Assembly: GCA_965220245.1 (NCBI GenBank)
Contig: CBDCPI010000006.1
Coordinates: 201,876 to 265,875, forward strand
From: Dehalococcoidia bacterium
GTDB taxonomy: Bacteria > Chloroflexota > Dehalococcoidia > Lucifugimonadales > UBA3495
Length of the DNA: 64,000 bases
Reading direction: 5' to 3'
In this document: positions 2,786-64,000 of the stretch, piece after piece
Layout: every line of letters begins with the position of its first letter
How positions within the stretch are numbered: the stretch's first letter is position 1
The notes under the pieces: generated by a model
Databases searched by the model: none
What the model was told of the DNA's origin: nothing
Seen by the model: the letters and a program-made list of their open reading frames with translations, nothing else
Translations under genes and position numbers: made by a program

Positions 2786-3009
2786 CCCTGCTTACCTCGA
2801 AATAATGGGTGAATTTTTAGAAGATAAGTGCTTCGGGGCGGCCATCGCTCAGGGGAAGAATCCAACGGTAATCCTTCTTCGAATGTAGCAGGAAGGAAAC
2901 GGGAAAGTCAATATAATCAGCTTGAGAGAATGCTAGGGTCTGCGGTTGAGGTGGCCCAGCCGAGAGTTTATATAACAAAACTGCAACATAATGTTAAATG
3001 GATAGCCCC

Positions 3010-3038
3010 TTGCACCCTTGTGAAAAATGGTGCATACT
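3010..3038 (+). promoter_or_regulatory. Possible sigma70-type promoter for the 5S rRNA gene
   Basis: TTGCAC at 3010-3015, a 17-nt spacer ending in TG, then CATACT at 3033-3038. It lies about 15 nt upstream of the 5S 5' end. Confidence 0.3.
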
Positions 3039-3052
3039 TTGACCTTAGTTGC

Positions 3053-3173
3053 TTCCTGGTGGTTCTAGCGAGGCGGCCCCACCCGTTCCCATCCCGAACA
3101 CGGAAGTGAAACGCCTCAGCGCCAACGATACTGCTCTGGTAACGGGGTGGGAAAATAGGTCACCGCCGGGAGG
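3053..3173 (+). rRNA. rrf: 5S ribosomal RNA, not linked to a 23S gene in this window
   Basis: cctggtggttctagcgaggcggccccacccgttcccatcccgaacacggaagtgaaacgcctcagcgccaacgatactg...gggaaaataggtcaccgccggga matches the bacterial 5S consensus, including CCCGUUCCCAUCCCGAACACGGAAGU. The terminal helix pairs tcctggtgg with ccgccggga. Confidence 0.88.
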
Positions 3174-3331
3174 CACTTCGAAGCACCAAGCCCTGCTGGG
3201 CGATGCCGATTTTAGAAGGCCAGACCTCCATCTAACGGACAGGTGCAACCAGCCCGGCTTGGGCGACGAAATCCTACTCTGATCGGCATTGCTCCTAGCC
3301 ACAAATTGCGTCCAGACCAGCTTAGCCTGCC

Positions 3332-3360
3332 TTTACACTATTTGGGGCGTCGCCTATAAT
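3332..3360 (+). promoter_or_regulatory. Near-consensus sigma70 promoter upstream of clpC
   Basis: TTTACA at 3332-3337, exactly 17 nt of spacer, TATAAT at 3355-3360. It would give a ~145-nt leader before the clpC ATG at 3510. Confidence 0.55.
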
Positions 3361-3509
3361 TGGACAAAGAGAGCAACCGCGCTATTGCATGCCCGGGGAT
3401 AGGGGGGCCGGTCCGGGATGTTCATCGTAGCTGCTCCGTTAAGCCATTTTGGGTAGAAGCAATATATCCGGTCCAATGGTCCTCACCCTGACCCACTAGG
3501 AGCGGAATC

Positions 3510-10686: not shown

Positions 10687-10841
10687 CCTAAACTAAAGCC
10701 AAGGTGAAATGTACATATCGCCAGAACGCCCTGTCGGTGCCCACCAGGTTGGGGCCTAAGGGTGATATGAGGTGCCGTAGAGTCCTTTCGATCCTCGTCA
10801 AAACCCCCGAAATGCACATCCCACCTTGGTATTGGTTTAGG
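10687..10841. mobile_element. 155-bp MITE-like element, copy 1; identical copy at 58888-59042
   Basis: 155/155 identity with 58888-59042 by direct comparison. Imperfect ~33-bp terminal inverted repeats: CCTAAACTAAAGCCAAGGTGAAATGTACATATC versus the reverse complement of the right end, CCTAAACCAATACCAAGGTGGGATGTGCATTTC. Confidence 0.75.
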
Positions 10842-11043
10842 AACAACGATGTGTGACCTACACTCGGATTTAGTCCCATCGGACCGGAGGGACTCACGTG
10901 TCTAATGAGACTGGATACGGGGATGCCCGCTATGGGGCTATTGAAGGGGAGTGTAATCTGGCCTGATTACGGTGTCAACGCGCCGGTCCAGCGATACCCA
11001 GGGCCTTTTAGTTGTCCAAGTTGTAACTCAGCAAAGCTATACA

Positions 11044-17068: not shown

Positions 17069-17176
17069 GTCATTCTGAGCCGCTTTGCGGCGAAGAATCT
17101 AAAATCCTTGGCGGTTAAACCGTTCTCCCGGCAAGGATTTTAGACCCCTCGCTCCGCTCGGGGTGACAGGGGTGAC
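17069..17176. repeat. Hairpin REP/MITE-like repeat, gtcattctgagc...gaagaatctaaaa / ggattttagacc...ggggtgac
   Basis: Inverted arms gtcattctgagccgctttgcggcgaagaatctaaaatcc and ggattttagacccctcgctccgctcggggtgac. Confidence 0.8.
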
Positions 17177-23049: not shown

Positions 23050-23215
23050 CCTAAGAGGGTGTTTAAAAACCGATTGCGGCCCATCCCTTCGACAGGCTCA
23101 GGACGGGCCCTGTCATTCCGAACGAAGTGAGGAATCTAAAATGCTTGGCAGCAGCAACGCTTAAGAAGGCAAGAAGTCTAGACCCTTCGCTTTACTCAGG
23201 GTGACAGGTGAGCGG
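23050..23215. repeat. Composite hairpin MITE-like repeat, related to 33041-33259
   Basis: It shares cctaagagg(g/a)tgtttaaaa(a)ccgattgc(g/a)gcccatccc...tgtcattccgaac(g/a)aagtgaggaatctaaaatgc...agacccttcgc...ctcagggtgacaggtga with the 33-kb copy. The right terminal repeat is missing here. Confidence 0.7.
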
Positions 23216-24363: not shown

Positions 24364-25497
24364 CTAAACAAAGTCCAGTTCTTCGAACTTGCCGCCGACA
24401 ATGGGCACCGGGTCCAAGCCCAGCCACTTGTCGACCACGGTGGAGTAGAAGCCCCGGAAGTCGTAGTTGGGCTCCAAGTCGCCTTGGGTCAGGTCTTCGG
24501 GCTTGACTGAAGGATAGTGGCTGTACATGCCGCCCTTGACGCCGTTGCCGATGACGAAGGCAACGCCGCCGGCCCCGTGGTCGGTGCCGGTGCCGTTGTC
24601 GCGCACCCGGCGGCCGAACTCGGTGAACAGCATCATGATCAGGTTGTCGCCAGCATCGTGCTCCTTAAGATCGTCGAAGAAATCGCTGATGGCGGCGGAG
24701 GTGTCGATCCAGAGCTTCTGGTGCATCGGCGGCTGGTTGAAGTGGGTGTCGAAACTGCCGTGGGCAGTGTAGAAAATCTGCGTCCCCAAATCGGCAAGGT
24801 ACACTCGGGCCACGTCTCTTAGGGCCTTGGCGATGGGTGTCTCCGCGTACTCGATAGACGACGAGTACTTTTCGGGGGCGCTCTTGATGATGTCGGCGCC
24901 TTTCAGCGCGTCTCGCCCGGTCTGGCCCAGATAGTCCATGGTGGCGCCGGTGCCGATGGCCGGGGCATACATGCGGGCGAACCGTTCCAGAATCTTAGTC
25001 CGGTCTTGCTCGGCGATTCCGGGCACCCCCGACATTACGCCGTAGGACTCCAGGTTAGACACCGAGGTGATGGGCACTCCTCGCAGCGCTAGGGCCCGCG
25101 GCAGACCTTGGCCGAAGTTGACCCCTTTCAGCACGTTCTCTCCATTGGGGTCCAAATCCCGGATTACCTTGGCGACCCAACCCTCGGTGCCCACCTTGTC
25201 GGGCTCGCAAGTGTGCCAAATGTCCATGGAGCGGAAGTGGGAGCGGGGCGAGTTCTCATAACCTATGCCGTGAACGATGGCAAGTTTGCCTTCGTCGTAG
25301 AGCTTCTTCACCGGACCCATGTTGGGGTTGAAGGCCAACTCGCCGTCGATGGGGATCACTTGGTCTTCCGGAATACCCACCCTGGGCCGGGCGTCCCGGT
25401 AGTAGGGATTGGTGTAAGGGATTATCGTGTTCAGGTAATCGTTGGCCCCGGTTAGCTGCAAGATAACCAGCACCGGGTCCTTCTTGGTGGTTGCCAT
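24364..25497 (-). CDS. DUF1501 domain protein (sulfatase-like fold)
   Basis: The ATG at 25497 lies 7 nt after AGGAGG. DPVLVILQLTGANDYLNTIIPY...IVHGIGYENSPRSHFRSMDIWHT...FDTHFNQ...FTEFGRRVRDNGTGTDHG. It is a paralogue of 63081-64000. Confidence 0.85.
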   Translation of the reverse strand: MATTKKDPVLVILQLTGANDYLNTIIPYTNPYYRDARPRVGIPEDQVIPIDGELAFNPNMGPVKKLYDEGKLAIVHGIGYENSPRSHFRSMDIWHTCEPDKVGTEGWVAKVIRDLDPNGENVLKGVNFGQGLPRALALRGVPITSVSNLESYGVMSGVPGIAEQDRTKILERFARMYAPAIGTGATMDYLGQTGRDALKGADIIKSAPEKYSSSIEYAETPIAKALRDVARVYLADLGTQIFYTAHGSFDTHFNQPPMHQKLWIDTSAAISDFFDDLKEHDAGDNLIMMLFTEFGRRVRDNGTGTDHGAGGVAFVIGNGVKGGMYSHYPSVKPEDLTQGDLEPNYDFRGFYSTVVDKWLGLDPVPIVGGKFEELDFV

Positions 25498-25574
25498 AGC
25501 CATTCCTCCTGTTGTCGTCGGCTTGCCGGCGCGCGGGTTAAGCGAGTGTCTGCAAAGTTCCCTCTCCCTCTGGG

Positions 25575-26906
25575 CTGACAAGGGTAGGCATTTGATTGTT
25601 TCAGGTTTCTGCATGGTAGATGAGCTTCATATCGGGCGACGGTTCCGGCCACGGTTCAGGAAGCAGCCAGACCCTGCGCCAAAGTCTGCCCTTGGGCAGC
25701 AGCCGTCTCAGCCAGATGATGCCCTGCCGCAGTACACTGATAGTCCGTTTGGGAGCGCTCCAAGCGCTGCGGTGAGTGGACGCCAGAGCCTTCGGCGGTG
25801 CTCTGAGATGGCCGGGCGCTATGCCAAGCTCATTGGCGTCTTCTACCCTGGTCCCATACGCCAGCGTCCAGAACGTCGCCACCGACAACGCAAGCCAGTG
25901 CCTCGCCACCCGTTCGGGATCGGTCCTGCGAGTGTTCTGCCACTGCCACCCCAAGCTCTTGAGTGCTCTGAAGCCCAGTTCTATCCAGAACCGGAGCATG
26001 TACCAGCACACCCCTGCTTCGCCGGGCGGCAGGTCGGTCATCACCACCCACGGCTCGTCTTGGCCCTGGTCCCAGACCACAATCACCGTCCCGCGGCGGC
26101 GCTTGCTGCTGTCCCTGAAAGCCGTCCCGGACCCAACATATGCGTGCCCCGGCCCCGGCACCAACGCTCGCGCCGGCAGGCGGGTTCCTCCGTCAGGGCA
26201 GAACACGGTGTTGACCGATTGCCGCATGTAAGGATGCCACCCCACAGAGCGTATCTGCTCCCACAGCCGCGGACTCCTCAAACCGCGGTCAGTCATCACC
26301 AGCACGCTCATGTCCGGCGGCACCGCTTCGGACAGCAACTTCAGCAGACTCACCGCCGGCGCTATCCACTGCCCGGGTTTGTTGGCGGGCAGGATGTGCC
26401 AGGCCACCGGAATAGCGCAACTGCGATAGACCACGCTTATCGCAATGGCGTTTATCCGGTCGCCCTTCATCGTCGGGTCTATGGCAAGCACCAATCTGTC
26501 AGACTTCCACCAATTGAGAATCCATCGCAGCAGTGGAACGAAGCACAGTCTGACATCCAACTGCACTCCGCACGGGTTGGCGCGGTCCTGCCCATTGTAC
26601 AGCCCTCCCGGAGATACTGCCGTATGCTGTTGAAGTTGCCTATGAACGAAAGCTCAGCGGCGACCGCGTTCTGGCAGCCGCTCTGGGCCATTATGATGCC
26701 GTACACCCACAGGACCAGTCCCTTCAACTGAGACCCTCTGAGATGCGGCATGTAGTATTGTATGGTCTGCTTCATCTGGTAGTATTCGGTTGGGAAGCGC
26801 ATGGCGAACCTCTGGCAGCCTTTCTGATTCTCACCAAAAAGATGCCAGAAAGCTGTGCGCTTTCCAAGTTCTTATGCCTATTTCATACTTTGCCTACCCT
26901 TGTCAG
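25575..26906 (-). mobile_element. Complete IS4-family insertion sequence (1332 bp) with an 11-bp target-site duplication
   Basis: Perfect 16-bp terminal inverted repeats: CTGACAAGGGTAGGCA at 25575-25590 and TGCCTACCCTTGTCAG at 26891-26906. They are flanked by direct repeats CTCCCTCTGGG at 25564-25574 and 26907-26917. Confidence 0.9.
25601..26802 (-). pseudogene. IS4-family DDE transposase split by a frameshift into two ORFs (26802-26479 and 26566-25601)
   Basis: The N-terminal ORF ends ...NSIRQYLREG. The second frame continues LYNGQDRANPCGVQLDVRLCF.... DDE blocks LAIDPT and LVMTDRG are present, plus the IS4 Y-(2)-R-(3)-E-(6)-K signature in YMLRFWIELGFRALK. The frame change lies near the G-rich run gggagggc around 26600. 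Confidence 0.8.
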
Positions 26907-27026
26907 CTCCCTCTGGGAGAGGGTTAGGGTGAGGGCTATTCTAGCGGTGAACTACCTTGGCCGTCGCCAGGCATTTCCCCTCATCCCAACCTTCTCCCCA
27001 AGGAGAAAGGGCTTTTGAAACACCTT

Positions 27027-28430
27027 CTATGCGAATTGATAGTCCCTGGATGCGGCGATTAGGGCCAGCATGACGCCGATCCTAGCCTCAGACTCGTTAA
27101 TATCCTCTTTGGAGTCCCAACTGAGGTCTCCGCTCTCTTGGGCTTGGGCCAGCAGTTCGGCGTGGGTCGACTCGCTGACCTCCAGCGGGCCCACCGCGTC
27201 GAGACAAGCGGCCACCAACTCGGCGGGCGAGAGGTCCCCTTGGGACCTCAGGTGCTCGACCACGGAGCGGATGCCGGGTAGCGAGGTGTTGCCCAACAGG
27301 CCGGAAGCGAAATTCACTCTTCGCACCAAGGCTCCGCCATCTATCCATTCCGACCCGGTATGCCAGCTCTCTACGCTGGGCGGATTGAGCAACTCCTGCC
27401 CCTGATAGGCGCACTCGAAGGCCAAGGAGTTGAAACCGGGCCTGGGGCCGTTGAAGTTGCCCACTAGGCGAACGGTCCCCACCACCAACTCAGCCGGGCT
27501 CTTGACCCGGGCAAAGCGGGCATTTTTGAAGAAGTCCGAGTTGAACAGCACGCGGAGCATCGAGCGGATGTCGTAGTTGGACTCGTGGTAAACGTCCACC
27601 AAGGTCTGGATGGCCTCGGGGTCTTGGGGCGGGGTGATATTCCAGCTAGGCACTTGAGGTTCATCGGCTACAAAGAAATTGTACAGGTGCCGGGCCAAGA
27701 ACCGGGGAGAGGCCGGTTGGCTTGCGATGATGTCGATAACGTCGCTGCCGTTGAACCGGCCAGTCTGCCCCAAGAAAGTCTTCTCGCCGTCGTCGTGGTC
27801 CTCGGGCTTGTATTCGAACTTCCAGTAGAAGCGGCCCAGCGGGTTCCGGGGAATCTTGGGGGCGACGGTCCATCCGGTAAAGGCCCGGGAAGCTTCTTTG
27901 ATGTCCTCTTCGGAGTAGTTGCCCACGCCCAAAGAGAAAAGCTCCATGAGCTCCCGGCCCCAGTTTTCGTTGATCGCCCCGTTGTGATTGCCGTTGTTGT
28001 CCAGCCAGTAGATCATGGCCGGCGATTTGGCCAACTCCACCAACAGGTCTCGGAAGCTCCCCAACCCGTATTTGCGGAGCATGGCGATCTGTTGGGTAAG
28101 CTCCGGGGGATTGTCTACTTTGGAGTTGCCGGTGGCAAACAACTGGTGCCAGAAGAGCGCCATTTTTTCTTCTAAAGGCCGCTTGGTGTTGATCATCCGG
28201 TACACCCAGTCGGCCTGGTTTATGGGAGGGCCCAAGGCGCCTTCGTAGCCCGGGAAAACCCGGTACAGGAGGGCCTCGTCAATTGGTGGTTGCTCTTCAG
28301 GGTGTAGAAGCTCCTCCACGGTAGCTTCATAGCCCTTGGCGACCCGAGCTTCCAGTTCTTCCCGGGGAGCCCCAAAACCGGCCCGCCGCATCAGGTGGGC
28401 CATCAAGGCAATATCATCTCCGTGAGGCAT
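27027..28430 (-). CDS. DUF1800 domain protein
   Basis: 467 aa. LMAHLMRRAGFG...EKMALFWHQLFATG...NENWGRELMELFSLGVGNYSEEDIKEASRAFTGW. It is a paralogue of 61607-63007 and the usual partner of DUF1501. Confidence 0.85.
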   Translation of the reverse strand: MPHGDDIALMAHLMRRAGFGAPREELEARVAKGYEATVEELLHPEEQPPIDEALLYRVFPGYEGALGPPINQADWVYRMINTKRPLEEKMALFWHQLFATGNSKVDNPPELTQQIAMLRKYGLGSFRDLLVELAKSPAMIYWLDNNGNHNGAINENWGRELMELFSLGVGNYSEEDIKEASRAFTGWTVAPKIPRNPLGRFYWKFEYKPEDHDDGEKTFLGQTGRFNGSDVIDIIASQPASPRFLARHLYNFFVADEPQVPSWNITPPQDPEAIQTLVDVYHESNYDIRSMLRVLFNSDFFKNARFARVKSPAELVVGTVRLVGNFNGPRPGFNSLAFECAYQGQELLNPPSVESWHTGSEWIDGGALVRRVNFASGLLGNTSLPGIRSVVEHLRSQGDLSPAELVAACLDAVGPLEVSESTHAELLAQAQESGDLSWDSKEDINESEARIGVMLALIAASRDYQFA

Positions 28431-33017: not shown

Positions 33018-33259
33018 CCTGAGCTTGCCGAAGGGCGAACCCTAAGAGGATGTTTAAAACCGATTGCAGCCCATCCCTACCATTCTGTGCGGCCCATCCC
33101 TGTCATTCCGAACAAAGTGAGGAATCTAAAATGCCCGGCGCAGCAGCGCCTTTAAGAAGGCGAGGAGTTTAGACCCTTCGCGGAGTTTATCTTGAGCGCA
33201 GCCGAAAGGCTCAGGGTGACAGGTGACTGGTTGCGAGGACTTATTAAACACCCTCTAAG
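33018..33259. repeat. Composite hairpin MITE-like repeat with CTAAGAGGRTGTTTAA-type termini
   Basis: Left end cctaagaggatgtttaaaac starts at 33041. The right end ttaaacaccctctaag at 33244-33259 is its imperfect inverse. The interior carries gtcattccgaacaaagtgaggaatctaaa / agacccttcgc...ctcagggtgac hairpin arms. The stop codon of the 33255-34904 gene lies inside the right terminus. Confidence 0.7.
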
Positions 33260-37509: not shown

Positions 37510-37669
37510 TTTCAGTTTCCATGTTGGAGTGGTGCAGTAACTCCCTACAATGTCATTCTGAGGAGCTTACGACGAAGAATCTAAAGTTTTTCGGCGGCAA
37601 AATGGTTGGTATGGGCAGGATTTTAGACCCTTCGCTGCGCTCAGGGTGACAGGTGACAACTGAAAGACC
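37510..37669. mobile_element. MITE-like element, family with TTTCAGTT...AACTGAAA termini, copy 1
   Basis: Near-identical to 51089-51243 over its full length except for a 7-bp ggtgaca duplication and a few substitutions. The termini tttcagttt and aactgaaag are inverted. The interior is a gtcattctgagg...gaagaatctaaag / ggattttagaccc...ctcagggtgac hairpin. Confidence 0.75.
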
Positions 37670-40620: not shown

Positions 40621-40827
40621 GGCAATCGCATTTTGTCATTCTGAGGAGCCCTTCGACTTGGCTCAGGATAAACTCCGCGACGAAGAATCTAAAATGCCAG
40701 CCGACCAAAACGGCTTTCCTCGCCGCAGCGACTCCGGGCAAAGGAAACGCATCGACGGCAAGGATTTTAGGCCCTTCACTCCGTTCAGAGTGACAGTAAC
40801 GGGGCAGGGTGACAGAATGCGATTGCC
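40621..40827. repeat. 207-bp hairpin MITE-like element with GGCAATCGCATT termini
   Basis: ggcaatcgcattttgtcattctg at 40621 and cagggtgacagaatgcgattgcc ending at 40827 are inverted. The interior contains gaagaatctaaaatgcc / ggattttaggccc arms. Confidence 0.7.
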
Positions 40828-41884: not shown

Positions 41885-41913
41885 CAGGGCCTTTTCAAAG
41901 TCGCTGCCACCAC

Positions 41914-41996
41914 CTGTCATTCTGAGCGGAGCGAAGAATCTCAGCTACAGTGGAGACACCCTTCGGAGAGACCCTTCGCTTTGCTCAGGGTGACAA
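41914..41996. repeat. Hairpin REP-like repeat between the E1 alpha and beta genes
   Basis: cctgtcattctgagcggagcgaagaatctc ... gagacccttcgctttgctcagggtgacaatg. Confidence 0.75.
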
Positions 41997-51088: not shown

Positions 51089-51243
51089 TCTTTCAGTTTT
51101 TATGTTGGAGTGGTGCAGTAACCCCCTACTGAGTTATTCTGAGGAGCTTGCCACGAAGAATCTAAAGTTTTTCGGCGGCAAAATAGTTGGAATGGGCAGG
51201 ATTTTAGACCCTTCGCTGCGCTCAGGGTGACAACTGAAAGACC
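51089..51243. mobile_element. MITE-like element, family with TTTCAGTT...AACTGAAA termini, copy 2
   Basis: See 37510-37669. It shares tttcagttt..atgttggagtggtgcagtaac.ccctac...ttctgaggagctt.c.acgaagaatctaaagtttttcggcggcaaaat.gttgg.atgggcaggattttagacccttcgctgcgctcagggtgaca...actgaaagacc. Confidence 0.75.
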
Positions 51244-52344: not shown

Positions 52345-52406
52345 GGCACTAAGCGGAAGCCCCACCCCGGCAACGGTTCCTTGGGAAGCGGACCGCCCTA
52401 GTCAAT

Positions 52407-52615
52407 TACTGATGCGTGAGTAAACATCTAAACCAAGCCATCCCGTAATTACCATGAAAATACCCAACCCGTCATTCCCGCCTGCGCGGGAATCCACTAT
52501 CCCTTATCGTTAGTTCCATTGCGAAATCGCCCACCACCTACCTCTGGACTCCAGCTTTTGTAGGAGTGACAGGAGGGGGTGCGCCAGAGGTTAGTTCTTT
52601 GTTCCCGTATCGGTA
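52407..52615. mobile_element. TA-flanked MITE (CTGATRCGTGAACAA...CTAAAC termini), copy 1
   Basis: Left terminus ctgatgcgtgagtaaacatctaaac starts at 52409. The right terminus ggttagttctttgttcccgtatcgg ends at 52613 and is its imperfect inverse. TA is present on both flanks. The interior hairpin is gtcattcccgcctgcgcgggaatcc. Confidence 0.7.
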
Positions 52616-53920: not shown

Positions 53921-54032
53921 GGTAGCCCTCCTGTTAGTGGCGGCGTTGCCCCATCCTAACCGGGCCGCTGGAGCAGGTCAAGCCAGATGTCCCTCTAGGC
54001 TAGGGCCTTACGCCACTCTCCCCGGACGTTCC

Positions 54033-54551
54033 CTTACAGGGGTAGGTATCCGCATTCTGTCGTTCCGGCGCAGGCCGGAACCCAGGGGCGGGGCCGGGCC
54101 TGCCCCGGATCAAGTCCGGGGCAGGCTCTAACGAATGCATACGAGGCGGACCCAGCAGTATGACGTACTCTTCCCGCAACCCGGAAAAAATTCCCTGCGT
54201 ATACCTCCTTGCCAGCAAGAGAAACGGGACGCTGTACACTGATGTTACCTCGGACCTGGCACAGCGTGTGTGGCAACACAAGAACGACTTCGTGGCAGGG
54301 TTTACCAGGCAGTACGGAGTCCACCGTCTCGTCTGGTATGAGACACATCCGGCCATGGAGAGCGCGATAGGACGGGAGAAGCAACTGAAGGGTTGGCACC
54401 GGAGTTGGAAGATTCGATTGATAAAGGAAGTGAACTACGACTGGGTTGACCTGTACCCGCAGATAGTCTGAATACTAGGAGGTGCGTCCCACCCACCTGG
54501 GTTCCGGCCTACGCCGGAACGACGGAGCAAGCAAATACCTGCCCCTGTAAG
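54033..54551 (+). mobile_element. TIR-bounded cassette carrying only a GIY-YIG nuclease gene
   Basis: Left end: CTTACAGGGGTAGGTATCCGCATTCTGTCGTTCCGGCGCAGGCCGGAACCCAGG. Reverse complement of the right end: CTTACAGGGGCAGGTATTTGCTTGCTCCGTCGTTCCGGCGTAGGCCGGAACCCAGG. The 10-bp direct repeat CCGGACGTTC lies at 54022-54031 and 54552-54561. Confidence 0.65.
54160..54471 (+). CDS. GIY-YIG nuclease-family protein (small stand-alone UPF0213/COG2827-like)
   Basis: 103 aa. VYLLASKRNGTLYTDVTSDLAQRVWQHK...GVHRLVWYE...AIGREKQLKGW matches the GIY-(10-11)-YIG/R/E core layout. Confidence 0.85.
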   Translation: MTYSSRNPEKIPCVYLLASKRNGTLYTDVTSDLAQRVWQHKNDFVAGFTRQYGVHRLVWYETHPAMESAIGREKQLKGWHRSWKIRLIKEVNYDWVDLYPQIV

Positions 54552-54637
54552 CCGGACGTTCTGGAGTAGACGCACCGAGGTATAATGGGGAACGGCCATA
54601 CAGTAGCGGATAGTCATTTGAAAGGATGAGGTGCAGC

Positions 54638-55198
54638 ATGGCGCGCATACCCACTTTGACTCGGGACCAAGTGCCGGAGGAGTTTCTGGAGGCATTCGAC
54701 CACGAAACAGCGGAGAGCGGTGGGGTGGTAGAGTCGGGGCCGGGCTCGGTAATGATCTACAGTCCGGAAATGCGCCGGCGGGCCAACCACCTGGTGGGCT
54801 ACTTTCGCCAAGTGACCGACCTGCCGCACCGGCTCCAAGAGCTGGCCATGTTGCTCACCGCCCGCCACCTGGACTGCCAATACATCTGGTATGCCCATTC
54901 GGTCCGGGGCCGACAGCAGGGCCTCAGTGACGAACTGGTTGACGCACTCCGGGACAAGAAACCCCTGCCCGGCCTGCCGCCGGATGAGGCTGCGTTGGTG
55001 GCCTACGCCACCGAGATGTTCAACGATCACCGGGTGAGTGAGGCGACCTTCCAGGCGGCTCTGGCCCAATTCGGCCCTCGTTGGCTCACCGAACTCTCCA
55101 CCATGATGGGCTACTACACCCTGCTGGCTTACAACGCCAACTTATTCGAAATCGACCTGCCTGAAGGCGGCTCGGAGCCGGTCCTCCCTATTTACTGA
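54638..55198 (+). CDS. Carboxymuconolactone decarboxylase (CMD/AhpD-like) family protein
   Basis: ATG at 54638 after GAGGTG. RLQELAMLLTARHLDCQYIWYAHSVRGRQQGLSDELVDAL is the typical CMD helix pair. The stop codon TGA at 55196-55198 lies inside the MITE terminus. Confidence 0.75.
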   Translation: MARIPTLTRDQVPEEFLEAFDHETAESGGVVESGPGSVMIYSPEMRRRANHLVGYFRQVTDLPHRLQELAMLLTARHLDCQYIWYAHSVRGRQQGLSDELVDALRDKKPLPGLPPDEAALVAYATEMFNDHRVSEATFQAALAQFGPRWLTELSTMMGYYTLLAYNANLFEIDLPEGGSEPVLPIY

Positions 55199-55359
55199 TA
55201 CGTGAACAAGTTTCTAAACTATCCTCTCCCCCGTCGTTCCGGCGAAGGCCGGAATCTAGGATCGTTCTCTGCCAGCTACGTTCTTTGTTCTCAGAATTTT
55301 GGATTCCGGCTCAAGGCCGGAAAGACGGACTGGTTTAGGTAATTGTTCACGCATCAGTA
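55193..55359. mobile_element. TA-flanked MITE (CTGATRCGTGAACAA...CTAAAC termini), copy 2
   Basis: Left terminus ctgatacgtgaacaagtttctaaac starts at 55195. The right terminus gtttaggtaattgttcacgcatcag ends at 55357. TA is on both flanks. The interior holds inverted hairpins gtcgttccggcgaaggccggaat and attccggctcaaggccggaaagacgg. Confidence 0.75.
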
Positions 55360-55510
55360 ATGCTCTTACCCATCTAATGATGGGGTCCGGCTGGCCTTGG
55401 TCTAGGTAGACAAGTCCTACTCCCGCAGCTACTATTCCCTCGTACCGCTCCCGCATCCAAAGTTAGGGTAAACCTGCCAAAACTGAGCGGCATGGTTGAG
55501 GGCGTAAGCG

Positions 55511-58887: not shown

Positions 58888-59042
58888 CCTAAACTAAAGC
58901 CAAGGTGAAATGTACATATCGCCAGAACGCCCTGTCGGTGCCCACCAGGTTGGGGCCTAAGGGTGATATGAGGTGCCGTAGAGTCCTTTCGATCCTCGTC
59001 AAAACCCCCGAAATGCACATCCCACCTTGGTATTGGTTTAGG
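58888..59042. mobile_element. 155-bp MITE-like element, copy 2; identical to 10687-10841
   Basis: 155/155 identity with copy 1 in the same orientation. It lies in the divergent region between the PNP-like gene and the formamidase gene. Confidence 0.75.
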
Positions 59043-59064
59043 AGCGCCCCGCGTCCGGTGCGAA

Positions 59065-61606: not shown

Positions 61607-63007
61607 ATGGCAGATAACGATATCGTTCTGATGGCGCATTTAATGAGGCGCGTCGGGTTTGGCGCCCAGTACCATGAGCTGGAGGCTCGGGCTGCCAAGG
61701 GTTACCAGGCGACCCTGGAAGAACTGCTGAATCCCGAAGACCATTCCAACGGCTTGGAATTGGACCTGGCGGAGCGGTACTTCATCGAGTGGAACCAGTT
61801 CACCAGAGGAGTCCCGGAATACTTCGCTTGGCGGATGATCAACTCCAAGAGCCAGTTGGAAGAGAAGATGGTGCTCTTCTGGCATGGCATCCTGTGCACT
61901 GCCGACAGTAAGACGCAGAGTTATCCCACGTCTTACAAGGAATTGGAGATGTTTCGCCAATATGGCATGGGCAGCTTCAGGGACCTGCTGGTCCAGATTT
62001 CCAAAGACCCGGCCATGGTGTTCTTCCTGGATAACTGCCTAAGCCACAAAGACGCCATCAACGAGAACTACGGGCGGGAGCTCTTGGAGTTGTTCTCGAT
62101 GGGTGTGGGCATGGACGGGGAGTTCAACTACACCGAGGATGACGTGAAGGAGTGCGCCCGGGCCTTTACCGGCTGGACCATCGCCAACGGCATTCCGGGG
62201 CAGCCCTATGGGCGTTACGACTCCATGTTCGTTTATAACCCTGCCGACCACGACGACGGGGAGAAGACGTTCCTGGGAGAGACGGGGCGGTTTAACGGCG
62301 AAGACGTCATCGACATCATCGTCAAGCAGCCAGCCACGGCCCGGTTCCTTTCCCGCCACCTGTACAGTTACTTCGTCGCTGACGAAGCCCAAGTACCGTC
62401 CTGGATGAGCACCCCGCCCCGGGACCCCGAGACCATCCGAATGCTGGAAGAGGAATACTTCCGGTCGGGTTACAACATCCGCTCCATGCTGCGGGTGCTG
62501 TTCAACTCCGACGCCTTCAAGAACGCCCGGTTCTCTAGGATCAAGAGTCCGATAGAAACGGTGATAGGCACTTTGCGCCTTATCGGCGATTGGACCTCTC
62601 CCAAGCCCGGCTTTGAGTTCATTTTCGACGAAATGAAGTTCATGGGGCAGGAGATATTTAATCCGCCTTCCGTAGAAGGCTGGCATACCGGCCGGGAGTG
62701 GATCGACGGCGGGACCTTGGTGCACCGGATTAACTTCACCTCCGACTTTGTGGGAGACTCGAAATTCCCCGGCATTCAGGAGATAATTGGCCGACTGGCC
62801 TCGGAAGATGTAACCCCGTCCCCCGAAGGTGTGGTCGATGGCTGCTTGCAGTTGCTGGGGCATTACGAGCTGGCCGATGAGACCCGGGATATGCTGGTGA
62901 ACCACGCCGAGCGATCGGGAATCACCCCCGATTCCGAAGATTTCCCCGAGCAAGTCGGTGAAATGCTTCAAATGATTGTGGCTACCAAGGAGTACCTCTA
63001 CGCCTAG
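61607..63007 (+). CDS. DUF1800 domain protein, second copy
   Basis: 466 aa. LMAHLMRRVGFG...EKMVLFWHGILCT...NENYGRELLELFSMGVG...ECARAFTGW. Collinear with 27027-28430. Confidence 0.85.
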   Translation: MADNDIVLMAHLMRRVGFGAQYHELEARAAKGYQATLEELLNPEDHSNGLELDLAERYFIEWNQFTRGVPEYFAWRMINSKSQLEEKMVLFWHGILCTADSKTQSYPTSYKELEMFRQYGMGSFRDLLVQISKDPAMVFFLDNCLSHKDAINENYGRELLELFSMGVGMDGEFNYTEDDVKECARAFTGWTIANGIPGQPYGRYDSMFVYNPADHDDGEKTFLGETGRFNGEDVIDIIVKQPATARFLSRHLYSYFVADEAQVPSWMSTPPRDPETIRMLEEEYFRSGYNIRSMLRVLFNSDAFKNARFSRIKSPIETVIGTLRLIGDWTSPKPGFEFIFDEMKFMGQEIFNPPSVEGWHTGREWIDGGTLVHRINFTSDFVGDSKFPGIQEIIGRLASEDVTPSPEGVVDGCLQLLGHYELADETRDMLVNHAERSGITPDSEDFPEQVGEMLQMIVATKEYLYA

Positions 63008-63080
63008 CCGATGGCTTTGGCTAACTGGGGCACGCTCAAGAGACCGAGAGACATAACCCCATACTGGGAAGGAGAAAGAC

Positions 63081-64000
63081 ATGACGTCCAATAGAAAAGA
63101 CCCGGTGCTGGTAGTGCTGCAGATGTCGGGTGCTTACGATGCTCTCAACACGATAATTCCTTACAATGACCCCTTGTACCAGGACTACCGGCCAGTGTTG
63201 AAGGTGGAGCCGGAGCGGGTCCTCCATATCGATGACAAAGTCGGCTTCCACCCGTCCATGGCGCCGATGAAGGACCTGTACGACCAAGGCAAGGTTGCGG
63301 TCATCCAGGGTATCGGCTATCCCGACCCGATCCGTTCCCACTTCCGCTCTATGGACATCTGGCACACCGCCGAGCCCGCGAAAATGGTCACTGAAGGCTG
63401 GCTGGGTAAGGCGATCCGGGACTTGGACCCCAACAAAGAGAACGTGCTCACCGCCGTGAACTTTGGGCGCGGCCTTCCCAGGGCATTGGCGGCGCCGGGG
63501 GTGTCGGTGGCGTCGGTAGGCGACCTGACCTCCTACGGGGTATTGACCGGGATCGACGGCGAAGACCAGAGGCTGGAAGCCCTGGATATTTTCTCCAAGA
63601 TGTATTCGCCCATGATCGGCACCGGCCCGGCCAATGATTATCTGTCCCAGACCGGACTGGACGCCCTAAAAGGGGCCGACATCCTCAACACGGCGCCAGA
63701 GATGTACTCCTCCACCATTGAGTACAACGGTGACATGTTCTCCCAATGGGTGAAAAGCATCGCTCAGGTCCACTTGGCGGAGTTCGGCACCAGGATTCTT
63801 TACACCGGCCTCAACCCCGGCGCCTTCGATACCCACGCCAATCAGAACACCGCTTTCCCCAAACTCTGGGGCGAGGTTACCAACGCCGTAAGCGACCTCT
63901 ATGCGGACTTGAAAGAGCACCACGCCAACGAAGAGGTAGTCATCCTAATGTTCACCGAGTTCGGCCGGCGGGTGCAGGACAATGGCTCGGGGACCGACCA
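63081..64000 (+). CDS. DUF1501 domain protein, second copy; 3' end beyond the window
   Basis: I translated the open frame from the ATG at 63081 (RBS GGAAGGAG) to the window end: MTSNRKDPVLVVLQMSGAYDALNTIIPY...IQGIGYPDPIRSHFRSMDIWHT...FDTHANQ...FTEFGRRVQDNGSGTD. It is not in the ORF track because it leaves the window. Confidence 0.85.
   Translation, partial: MTSNRKDPVLVVLQMSGAYDALNTIIPYNDPLYQDYRPVLKVEPERVLHIDDKVGFHPSMAPMKDLYDQGKVAVIQGIGYPDPIRSHFRSMDIWHTAEPAKMVTEGWLGKAIRDLDPNKENVLTAVNFGRGLPRALAAPGVSVASVGDLTSYGVLTGIDGEDQRLEALDIFSKMYSPMIGTGPANDYLSQTGLDALKGADILNTAPEMYSSTIEYNGDMFSQWVKSIAQVHLAEFGTRILYTGLNPGAFDTHANQNTAFPKLWGEVTNAVSDLYADLKEHHANEEVVILMFTEFGRRVQDNGSGTD

Follow-up and report, generated by a model that had tools for sequence, protein, structure and literature searches.

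The closest described relatives of the element considered here are the Ssn nucleases, which were reported by Chenal et al. (2025, Nat Commun 16:2388; PMC11893778) as single-domain GIY-YIG proteins of the cd10448 family acting as site-specific endonucleases on single-stranded DNA (ssDNA). According to this work, the Ssn proteins bind a hairpin repeat, which in Neisseria is the NTS (CGTCATTCCCGCGMAVGCGGGAATCYRG, containing dRS3) and which was generalised as SRM, and they cut one strand only, a few nucleotides 5' of the hairpin, without cleaving double-stranded DNA (dsDNA). Such cleavage, restricted to ssDNA and located 5' of the hairpin, has been established for the Nm, Ne, Nw and Wp enzymes; in Nm, the GTC that precedes the palindrome is important for cutting, and the C that follows it for binding (PMC11893778). 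A hairpin-ssn-hairpin architecture was reported across phyla, and NTS-ssnA-NTS was called "identical to" insertion sequences and was compared with RAYT/REP; transposition, target duplications and empty sites were not shown (PMC11893778), and our literature search found no follow-up work on Ssn transposition. Here we describe a locus of similar architecture in a 64,000-nucleotide stretch of DNA (referred to below as the window) from contig CBDCPI010000006.1 of a Dehalococcoidia bacterium (GCA_965220245.1), where a gene for a 103-aa GIY-YIG protein (54160-54471, + strand) is enclosed by inverted hairpin repeats. This locus is very probably an SRM-ssn-SRM module, in which the gene for an Ssn nuclease lies between two inverted copies of the hairpin cognate to the enzyme. 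A first-pass annotation of the window had considered this arrangement to be undescribed, which it is not, as the architecture, the cutting of hairpin ssDNA and the analogy to insertion sequences and RAYT/REP are all contained in the above paper.

The identity of the protein is indicated by several results. The Pfam domain PF01541 (GIY-YIG) covers residues 13-85 of its 103 residues (E=8.9e-14), nothing further is matched in this single-domain protein, and an NCBIfam search with it retrieved no family. An exact look-up gave no record for the protein, nor for the 100%-identical CMD protein P0241. In BLASTP, the window protein aligns over 92 aa with a 94-aa open reading frame (ORF) of N. gonorrhoeae at 60% identity (119 bits, E=7e-42); this ORF is the single match in the gonococcal chromosomes filed in PLSDB and is flanked by canonical NTS copies. 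Given the genus, the size of the ORF and the NTS copies around it, we take it as the likely orthologue of SsnA (NMV_0044/NMB0047 in N. meningitidis). In the published work, homology to Ssn is accepted at E<1e-10 to Neisseria SsnA, and the value obtained for the window protein via the gonococcal ORF lies below this limit. The label "UPF0213-type", under which the protein had been annotated, has to be replaced by Ssn (cd10448), since its best match in the PDB, the UPF0213 structure 1zg2 (BH0048), gives just 26 bits (E=9e-5) versus 119 bits for the gonococcal protein; membership in UPF0213/YhbQ (cd10456) was rejected on this basis, and what the window protein has in common with the UPF0213/YhbQ/SLX1-like group is a small GIY-YIG fold. 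Of the catalytic motifs, Y15, Y26, R36, H40 and E73 are conserved, but the Gly28 of the YIG motif is replaced (see below); dN/dS across the clade is 0.11-0.17. Close relatives of the protein within the E cut-off number 3,854, and its identity is 65-83% even for proteins from Pseudomonadota; an identity of 60-70% to proteobacterial proteins implies horizontal spread. Several PLSDB "plasmid" records of 2-5 Mb (NZ_CP119140.1, NZ_CP119142.1 and others, e.g. an N. gonorrhoeae record of 2.17 Mb) are chromosomes, i.e. they are labelled in error.

The gene is the sole ORF with a domain match inside a 519-bp unit (54033-54551), whose ends are formed by imperfect terminal inverted repeats of 54 and 56 nt (54033-54086 and 54496-54551; gapped local alignment score 71, with a single 2-nt indel). 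Terminal inverted repeats are an insertion-sequence criterion, but the unit contains no recognised transposase, and none was detected near the locus in the ORF lists and in Pfam scans of the neighbouring genes. An Rfam search of the region from 50 to 58 kb gave no match. On the left, the repeat consists of an outer arm, CTTACAGGGGTAGGTATCCGCATTCT (54033-54058, + strand), which extends the inverted repeat 5' of the hairpin, followed by the SRM/NTS-like hairpin motif TGTCGTTCCGGCGCAGGCCGGAACCCAGG (54058-54086, + strand). On the right, the corresponding hairpin motif on the minus strand, CGTCGTTCCGGCGTAGGCCGGAACCCAGG (54496-54525), is followed by the right outer arm, also on the minus strand, CTTACAGGGGCAGGTATTTGCTTGCTC (54526-54551). 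The outer-arm sequence is CTTACAGGGGYAGGTAT, with termini of the form CTTACAGGGG.... The inverted-repeat ends are abutted by two copies of the ten-mer CCGGACGTTC, at 54022-54031 on the left, where an extra C (54032) precedes the inverted-repeat end, and at 54552-54561 on the right; this ten-mer occurs exactly twice in the 64 kb and is a candidate target-site duplication. The promoter-like site of the LLM gene (TTGACC-17-TAGGAT, 53981-53953) and the TATAAT of the CMD gene (54581-54586), which lies about 20 nt downstream of the right copy of the ten-mer, are both outside of the unit. In all of these respects (ORF, unit, inverted repeats with hairpins, direct repeat and flanking promoters) the annotation made from the sequence was accurate.

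The hairpins also connect the locus to the Ssn system. Each inverted-repeat arm holds a perfect 8-bp hairpin, GTTCCGGC-N4-GCCGGAAC, and in both arms this is read in the context GTC-GTTCCGGC-N4-GCCGGAAC-C, with the GTC and the C following the palindrome retained. The two arms fold stably as ssDNA (-14.9 and -13.9 kcal/mol, with z values of -3.8 and -3.1). The pattern GTTCCGGCNNNGGCCGGAAC is found at three sites in the window (54062, 54501 and 55236; 6 matches on both strands), where 0.01 is expected, and of the hairpins in this dialect all 5 copies lie within 3 kb of ssn and 0 elsewhere in the window. When 26 hairpins from different loci were compared, G2, T3, C4 and the post-palindrome C were found to be invariant, 94% of the cells formed pairs, and 6 of the 8 stem pairs exhibited double changes, with the observed covariation score reached in 0 of 500 shuffles. 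The double changes in six of the eight pairs indicate that the stem differences from NTS are compensatory. A generic hairpin finder was too noisy for counting of the dialects (41 hits as against about 25 in shuffled sequences).

The related loci, which are referred to by L numbers where they need to be told apart, show that this arrangement is common in the family. The comparison set consisted of about 90 loci, of which 43 came from a scan of species-representative genomes and 47 from IMG/VR; the 43 genome loci span Chloroflexota, Alpha- and Betaproteobacteria, Planctomycetota, bacteria of the Candidate Phyla Radiation (CPR), Bacteroidota, Firmicutes, Acidobacteriota and others. In most of them ssn is bracketed by inverted hairpins with the grammar CGTCA-stem-loop-stem-TCC, where the stem varies by lineage; the inverted pair is visible by eye in most of the 43 genome loci, and an inverted-arm score of at least 40 was obtained for 24 of these and for 40 of the 47 IMG/VR loci. 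In the window, the GTC side of both hairpins points away from ssn, so that the known enzymes predict one nick at each outer border of the module, the two being on opposite strands. The same orientation, with the GTC or cleavage side gene-distal, is seen in 41 of the 55 loci where a hairpin was detected on each side.

The limits of the module are also apparent from these comparisons. In blastn, the part of the window that is homologous to L003 and L002 is bounded precisely by the two hairpins (54059-54525, about 80%); the flanks and the neighbouring genes are unrelated. In L118, the closest relative (88% aa identity), the right outer arm is present, with substitutions, up to 54551, beyond which the sequences diverge, and the left outer arm beside the L048 hairpin is conserved from 54039 on; L003 and L004 are without outer arms. 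A pattern search for the outer arms revealed no further copy in the window or in the 43 genome loci, the L118 arm having been found by later alignment. Since the homology between genomes ends at the hairpins or the outer arms, the cassette is a discrete and relocatable module, and the earlier description of it as such is borne out by its presence in different genomic contexts. The 64-kb window contains 1 copy of ssn, and a pattern-based scan yielded one match per complete chromosome of metagenome-assembled genomes (MAGs), except for one MAG with two (L010/L011, 95% identical). In Rhizobium plasmids, ssn is absent beside a ctpA-like gene in 125 related plasmids, although the boundaries are not resolvable there.

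A number of other observations on the relatives concern the neighbourhood of the hairpins. The flanking genes in L001, L002 and L049 are about 90% identical, and their synteny is broken exactly at the ssn cassette, which in L049 is inverted relative to its neighbours as compared to L002; based on these breaks, hairpin clusters look like rearrangement hot spots. In the L118 copy (2930-3450), ssn is frameshifted by 1 nt close to its 3' end, and the left hairpin, which ends right at the stop codon of an MFS gene, lacks its 5' half; this suggests that the copy is decaying or that a break occurred in the loop of the hairpin. Units of 70-130 bp with one hairpin each form tandem arrays beside ssn in L010 (4530-4980), L011 (4560-5200), L048 (3330-3640) and L001 (3420-3950). 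They resemble Neisseria NIME or BIME-like mosaics, and their copy number differs between the two 95%-identical loci of one MAG. The likeness to Neisseria dRS3/NIME extends to the dRS3-type palindrome core and to the mosaic or tandem clusters by genes and rearrangement breakpoints, but the stem sequence is different and the arrays here are modest in size. IS110-like transposases encoded by phages also use dRS3 as a target for integration, and of these there is no sign here.

Hairpins of the cognate dialect also occur close by without a gene. The region 55192-55360 contains a gene-less element resembling a miniature inverted-repeat transposable element (MITE), in which a 28-nt outer inverted repeat (TTACTGATACGTGAAC..., 86%) encloses two inverted hairpins of the same dialect, 55232-55259 on the + strand and 55304-55328 on the - strand. 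The second gene-less element that had been annotated, at 52407-52615, could be traced in part only: a partial copy of a MITE terminus (52405-52442, + strand; 79% complementary to the 55324-55361 terminus) is followed by a canonical-type hairpin, GTCATTCCCGCCTGCGCGGGAATC (52471-52494), for which no inverted partner was detected. The idea that the GIY-YIG protein and the flanking hairpins form a functional pair is thus supported, with the same hairpins recurring nearby without a gene. The leader of ssn contains a further perfect palindrome with a 12-bp stem (54098-54126), GCCTGCCCCGGA-TCAAG-TCCGGGGCAGGC, which folds at -17.8 kcal/mol (z -5.7). It represents an insertion of about 26 nt in this copy only, appearing as an alignment gap in L118, L003 and L048, and its core, CCCCGGA-N5-TCCGGGG, matches the hairpin that flanks ssn in L033, a Phycisphaerae MAG; this match indicates that the hairpin of one dialect has landed within the cassette of another.

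The window also harbours a second, far more abundant hairpin family, which consists of REPIN-like inverted doublets of the form TGTCAYYCYGAGC-N3-GCGARRRRTCTAAAAT ... ATTTTAGAYYYYTCGC-N3-GCTCRGRRTGACA with the doublet signature GTCAYYCYGAGC. These doublets are located at about 1052-1170, 17069-17170, 23108-23210, 33098-33225, 37550-37655, 40660-40800, 41912-41996 and 51130-51237. Their hairpins follow the GTCA...TC grammar seen with Ssn, although the stem contains tandem G.A mismatches. As the window holds no ssn matching this second family, a second ssn paralogue elsewhere in the genome is likely.

By analogy with the Neisseria and Wolbachia homologues, the 103-aa protein would bind its hairpin only where the DNA is single-stranded, e.g. 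at replication forks or when DNA enters the cell by transformation or conjugation. The protein would read the GTC just 5' and the C just 3' of the palindrome, and would nick the hairpin strand a few nucleotides 5' of the hairpin. The binding and cutting of ssDNA by the window protein are here transferred from these characterised enzymes. In terms of its overall organization, the locus may be compared to the RAYT/REP-REPIN systems (IS200/IS605-related, Y1 HUH), with which it shares a low-copy nuclease gene between inverted copies of its hairpin, hairpins scattered as singlets and as inverted doublets, recognition of hairpins in ssDNA, and a mostly vertical and stable inheritance with occasional transfer. 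A pair of this kind would comprise one low-copy, mostly resident nuclease gene under purifying selection together with dispersed gene-less hairpins and doublets, and Ssn may have a role in generating or maintaining the hairpin copies. However, the resemblance is architectural only, the fold being GIY-YIG and not HUH, and as GIY-YIG enzymes lack a covalent tyrosine intermediate, there is no obvious chemistry for rejoining.

Compared with the published Ssn/NTS system, the likeness thus includes a single-domain GIY-YIG protein of about 94-103 aa, inverted hairpins of GTC-palindrome-C grammar bracketing the gene, gene-less copies close by, and a family distributed broadly across phyla. The window locus differs in its host, a Chloroflexota (Dehalococcoidia-like) MAG ("Chloroflex" is absent from the main text of PMC11893778), in its hairpin dialect, in the G28D change described below, and in the 26-nt outer arms with the abutting 10-bp repeat, which are unreported in that paper. 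The kind of system is therefore known, and what is new are the host lineage, the dialect, and the look of a discrete insertion with a 10-bp flanking duplication. This copy may have arrived, as a 519-bp unit with its 26-nt outer arms, between the divergent promoters and left the 10-bp duplication behind.

Several observations weigh against the above interpretation of this locus. The window has no strict match to the published degenerate SRM pattern (HGTCWY...). Relaxing its W to D gives 3 matches, viz. both arms and 55232, and the window dialect, GTCGTTCCGGC...GCCGGAACC, fails the motif only because its outermost palindrome pair is G-C instead of A-T; the G standing where W is called for belongs to a compensated pair (AU 16, GC 5), and the strict published expression is too stringent for this dialect. 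The codon GAT at 54241-54243 specifies Asp28, where all 21 aligned relatives have the Gly of the YIG motif, and this G28D change at an otherwise invariant position may mean that the copy is weakened or inactive; the codon could also be an assembly error. The dN/dS value against L003, taken as the nearest relative, is 0.49, as compared to 0.11-0.17 across the clade. Further, ssn is syntenic in L012/L022 and in L009/L021, which speaks for a gene that has stayed in place in those lineages and is not actively moving. Lastly, the outer arms of 26 nt and the 10-bp repeat are both left unexplained by the chemistry of Ssn, viz. an ssDNA nick near the hairpin with no known joining: the published Ssn cut a few nucleotides 5' of the hairpin (PMC11893778), versus an inverted-repeat end that is 26-27 nt away.

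The significance of the 10-bp repeat was assessed by looking for symmetric repeats at the other loci. In controls with mismatched flanks, symmetric repeats of at least 10 bp were present in 1 of 702 and 3 of 1482 pairs. Repeats of at least 8 bp were found in 3 of 27 genome loci (10 bp in the window, 9 bp in L004 and 8 bp in L042, in each case 21-31 nt outside the hairpin) as compared to 5 of 702 controls, but in 0 of 39 loci of the independent IMG/VR set. The pooled 3 of 66 is barely above expectation, and flanking duplication is not a family-wide feature. The proposed target-site duplication therefore stands as a feature of this copy and was rejected as a general one (2 of 26 other genome loci, 0 of 39 IMG/VR loci); likewise, of the expectation that copies of the gene would be bounded by inverted repeats with flanking duplications, the first part holds for most of the approximately 90 loci and the second does not. 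The search for an empty site in relatives, which the first-pass annotation had suggested, was negative. Among LLM orthologues (93% aa identity) the neighbours differ and the intergenic DNA is unalignable, while among CMD orthologues (84-86% aa identity) the neighbours again differ and only the promoter-proximal right flank aligns. For the region upstream of CMD in L058, the right copy of the repeat and the CMD leader align (p about 0.002), with no alignment of the left flank (p=0.18). An uninterrupted LLM-CMD site would read ...CTCTCCCCGGACGTTCTGGAG..., and the junction 20-mer gave 6 hits in JGI metagenomes, all of them chance matches in coding sequences.

Other explanations for this locus need to be considered in the light of these results. 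According to the one that fares best, although we consider it on the whole unlikely, the nuclease is a domesticated resident that does not move by itself, and the 10-bp repeat arose by chance or as a side effect of recombination where hairpins are clustered. The syntenic pairs noted above and the purifying selection are in accordance with this, as are the rearrangement breakpoints and the cassette inversion at hairpin clusters in L001/L002/L049, and ten-mers do arise in about 0.1-0.2% per locus in the controls. However, the repeat lies within 1 nt of the inverted-repeat ends, for which the chance in random sequence is about 3 x 4^-10, and the module-limited homology of about 80% between genomes with unrelated flanks indicates that the cassette has been relocated or transferred.

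Two further explanations, both of which we regard as improbable and to a similar degree, assign the outer arms and the duplication to transposition proper. In one of these, the unit is an autonomous transposon whose sole enzyme is the GIY-YIG ssDNA nuclease; Ssn would cut where the extended inverted repeats end on the outside, and the unit would integrate with a target duplication of 8-10 bp. The abutment of the inverted repeats on the 10-bp repeat, the end of the L118 homology exactly at the inverted-repeat end, the outward cleavage side in 41 of 55 loci, the occurrence of the module in unrelated contexts and the symmetric repeats of L004 and L042 (3 of 27 versus 5 of 702 controls) would all be expected from such an element. 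Were it correct, a GIY-YIG-only active transposon would be mechanistically unlike the known classes of prokaryotic mobile elements, and the pan-bacterial GTCA...TC hairpin repeats would have originated from it. Against it stand the lack of symmetric repeats of at least 8 bp in the 39 IMG/VR loci, with the pooled frequency barely exceeding expectation, the absence of outer arms in L003 and L004, the single ssn in the window and, by the pattern-based scan, in each complete MAG chromosome (one MAG, that of L010/L011, has two), the failure to find an empty site via LLM or CMD orthologues or in the JGI metagenomes, and the stable position in L012/L022 and L009/L021. In addition, the characterised Ssn cut ssDNA only, a few nucleotides from the hairpin, and strand transfer is not known for them.

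In the other, the 26-nt outer arms and the 10-bp duplication stem from a DDE-type transposase unrelated to ssn, which mobilised a MITE-like shell in trans, and ssn with its hairpins was carried as cargo. The combination of inverted repeats with a duplication of fixed length is classically that of DDE enzymes, outer inverted repeats also surround the hairpins of the gene-less element at 55192-55360, and most ssn loci are without a duplication. However, the pattern search revealed no other copy of the outer arm in the window or the 43 genome loci, the ORF lists and the Pfam scans of neighbouring genes show no transposase gene close by, and parts of the arms travel with ssn (the left in L048, the right in L118), so that the arms belong to the ssn module. 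In the same way, the unit resembles classical insertion sequences and MITEs in its terminal inverted repeats, abutting direct repeat and small size, but it has no DDE, serine or tyrosine transposase, and the duplication is a feature of one copy. A free-standing GIY-YIG homing endonuclease that cuts empty alleles and is copied in by repair, as its domain and intergenic position might suggest, can be set aside as extremely unlikely, because the protein has no DNA-binding domain beyond the catalytic core of about 90 aa, homing produces neither inverted repeats nor duplications, the members of this family do not cut dsDNA, and there were 0 matches to the window protein in 50,697 phage records.

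Some other repeats in the window are noted here for completeness. At 1279-1579, a 21-bp unit (TTCCAACTGGCCCATGCGGGT-like) is repeated about 14 times in tandem, and one strand of this array may code for a protein segment with heptad repeats. A direct repeat of 156 bp, 100% identical, is present at 10687-10842 and 58888-59043, 48 kb apart. A long inverted similarity between 24847-28199 and 61832-63725 (up to 489 nt at 71%, about 34 kb apart) is probably due to paralogous genes in opposite orientation.

With the reading of this locus as an Ssn gene and its cognate hairpins, the Ssn/SRM nuclease-hairpin system is extended to a Dehalococcoidia-like genome, with a hairpin dialect that is backed by compensatory changes. 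The results also bear on the question, raised by the discoverers of this system, whether NTS-ssn-NTS is or was mobile, in that they reveal a sharply delimited module, its occurrence in unrelated contexts, a strong bias for the cleavage side facing outward, and one transposon-like duplication. Further, each new pair of an Ssn protein and its hairpin is a candidate reagent for sequence-specific cutting of ssDNA.

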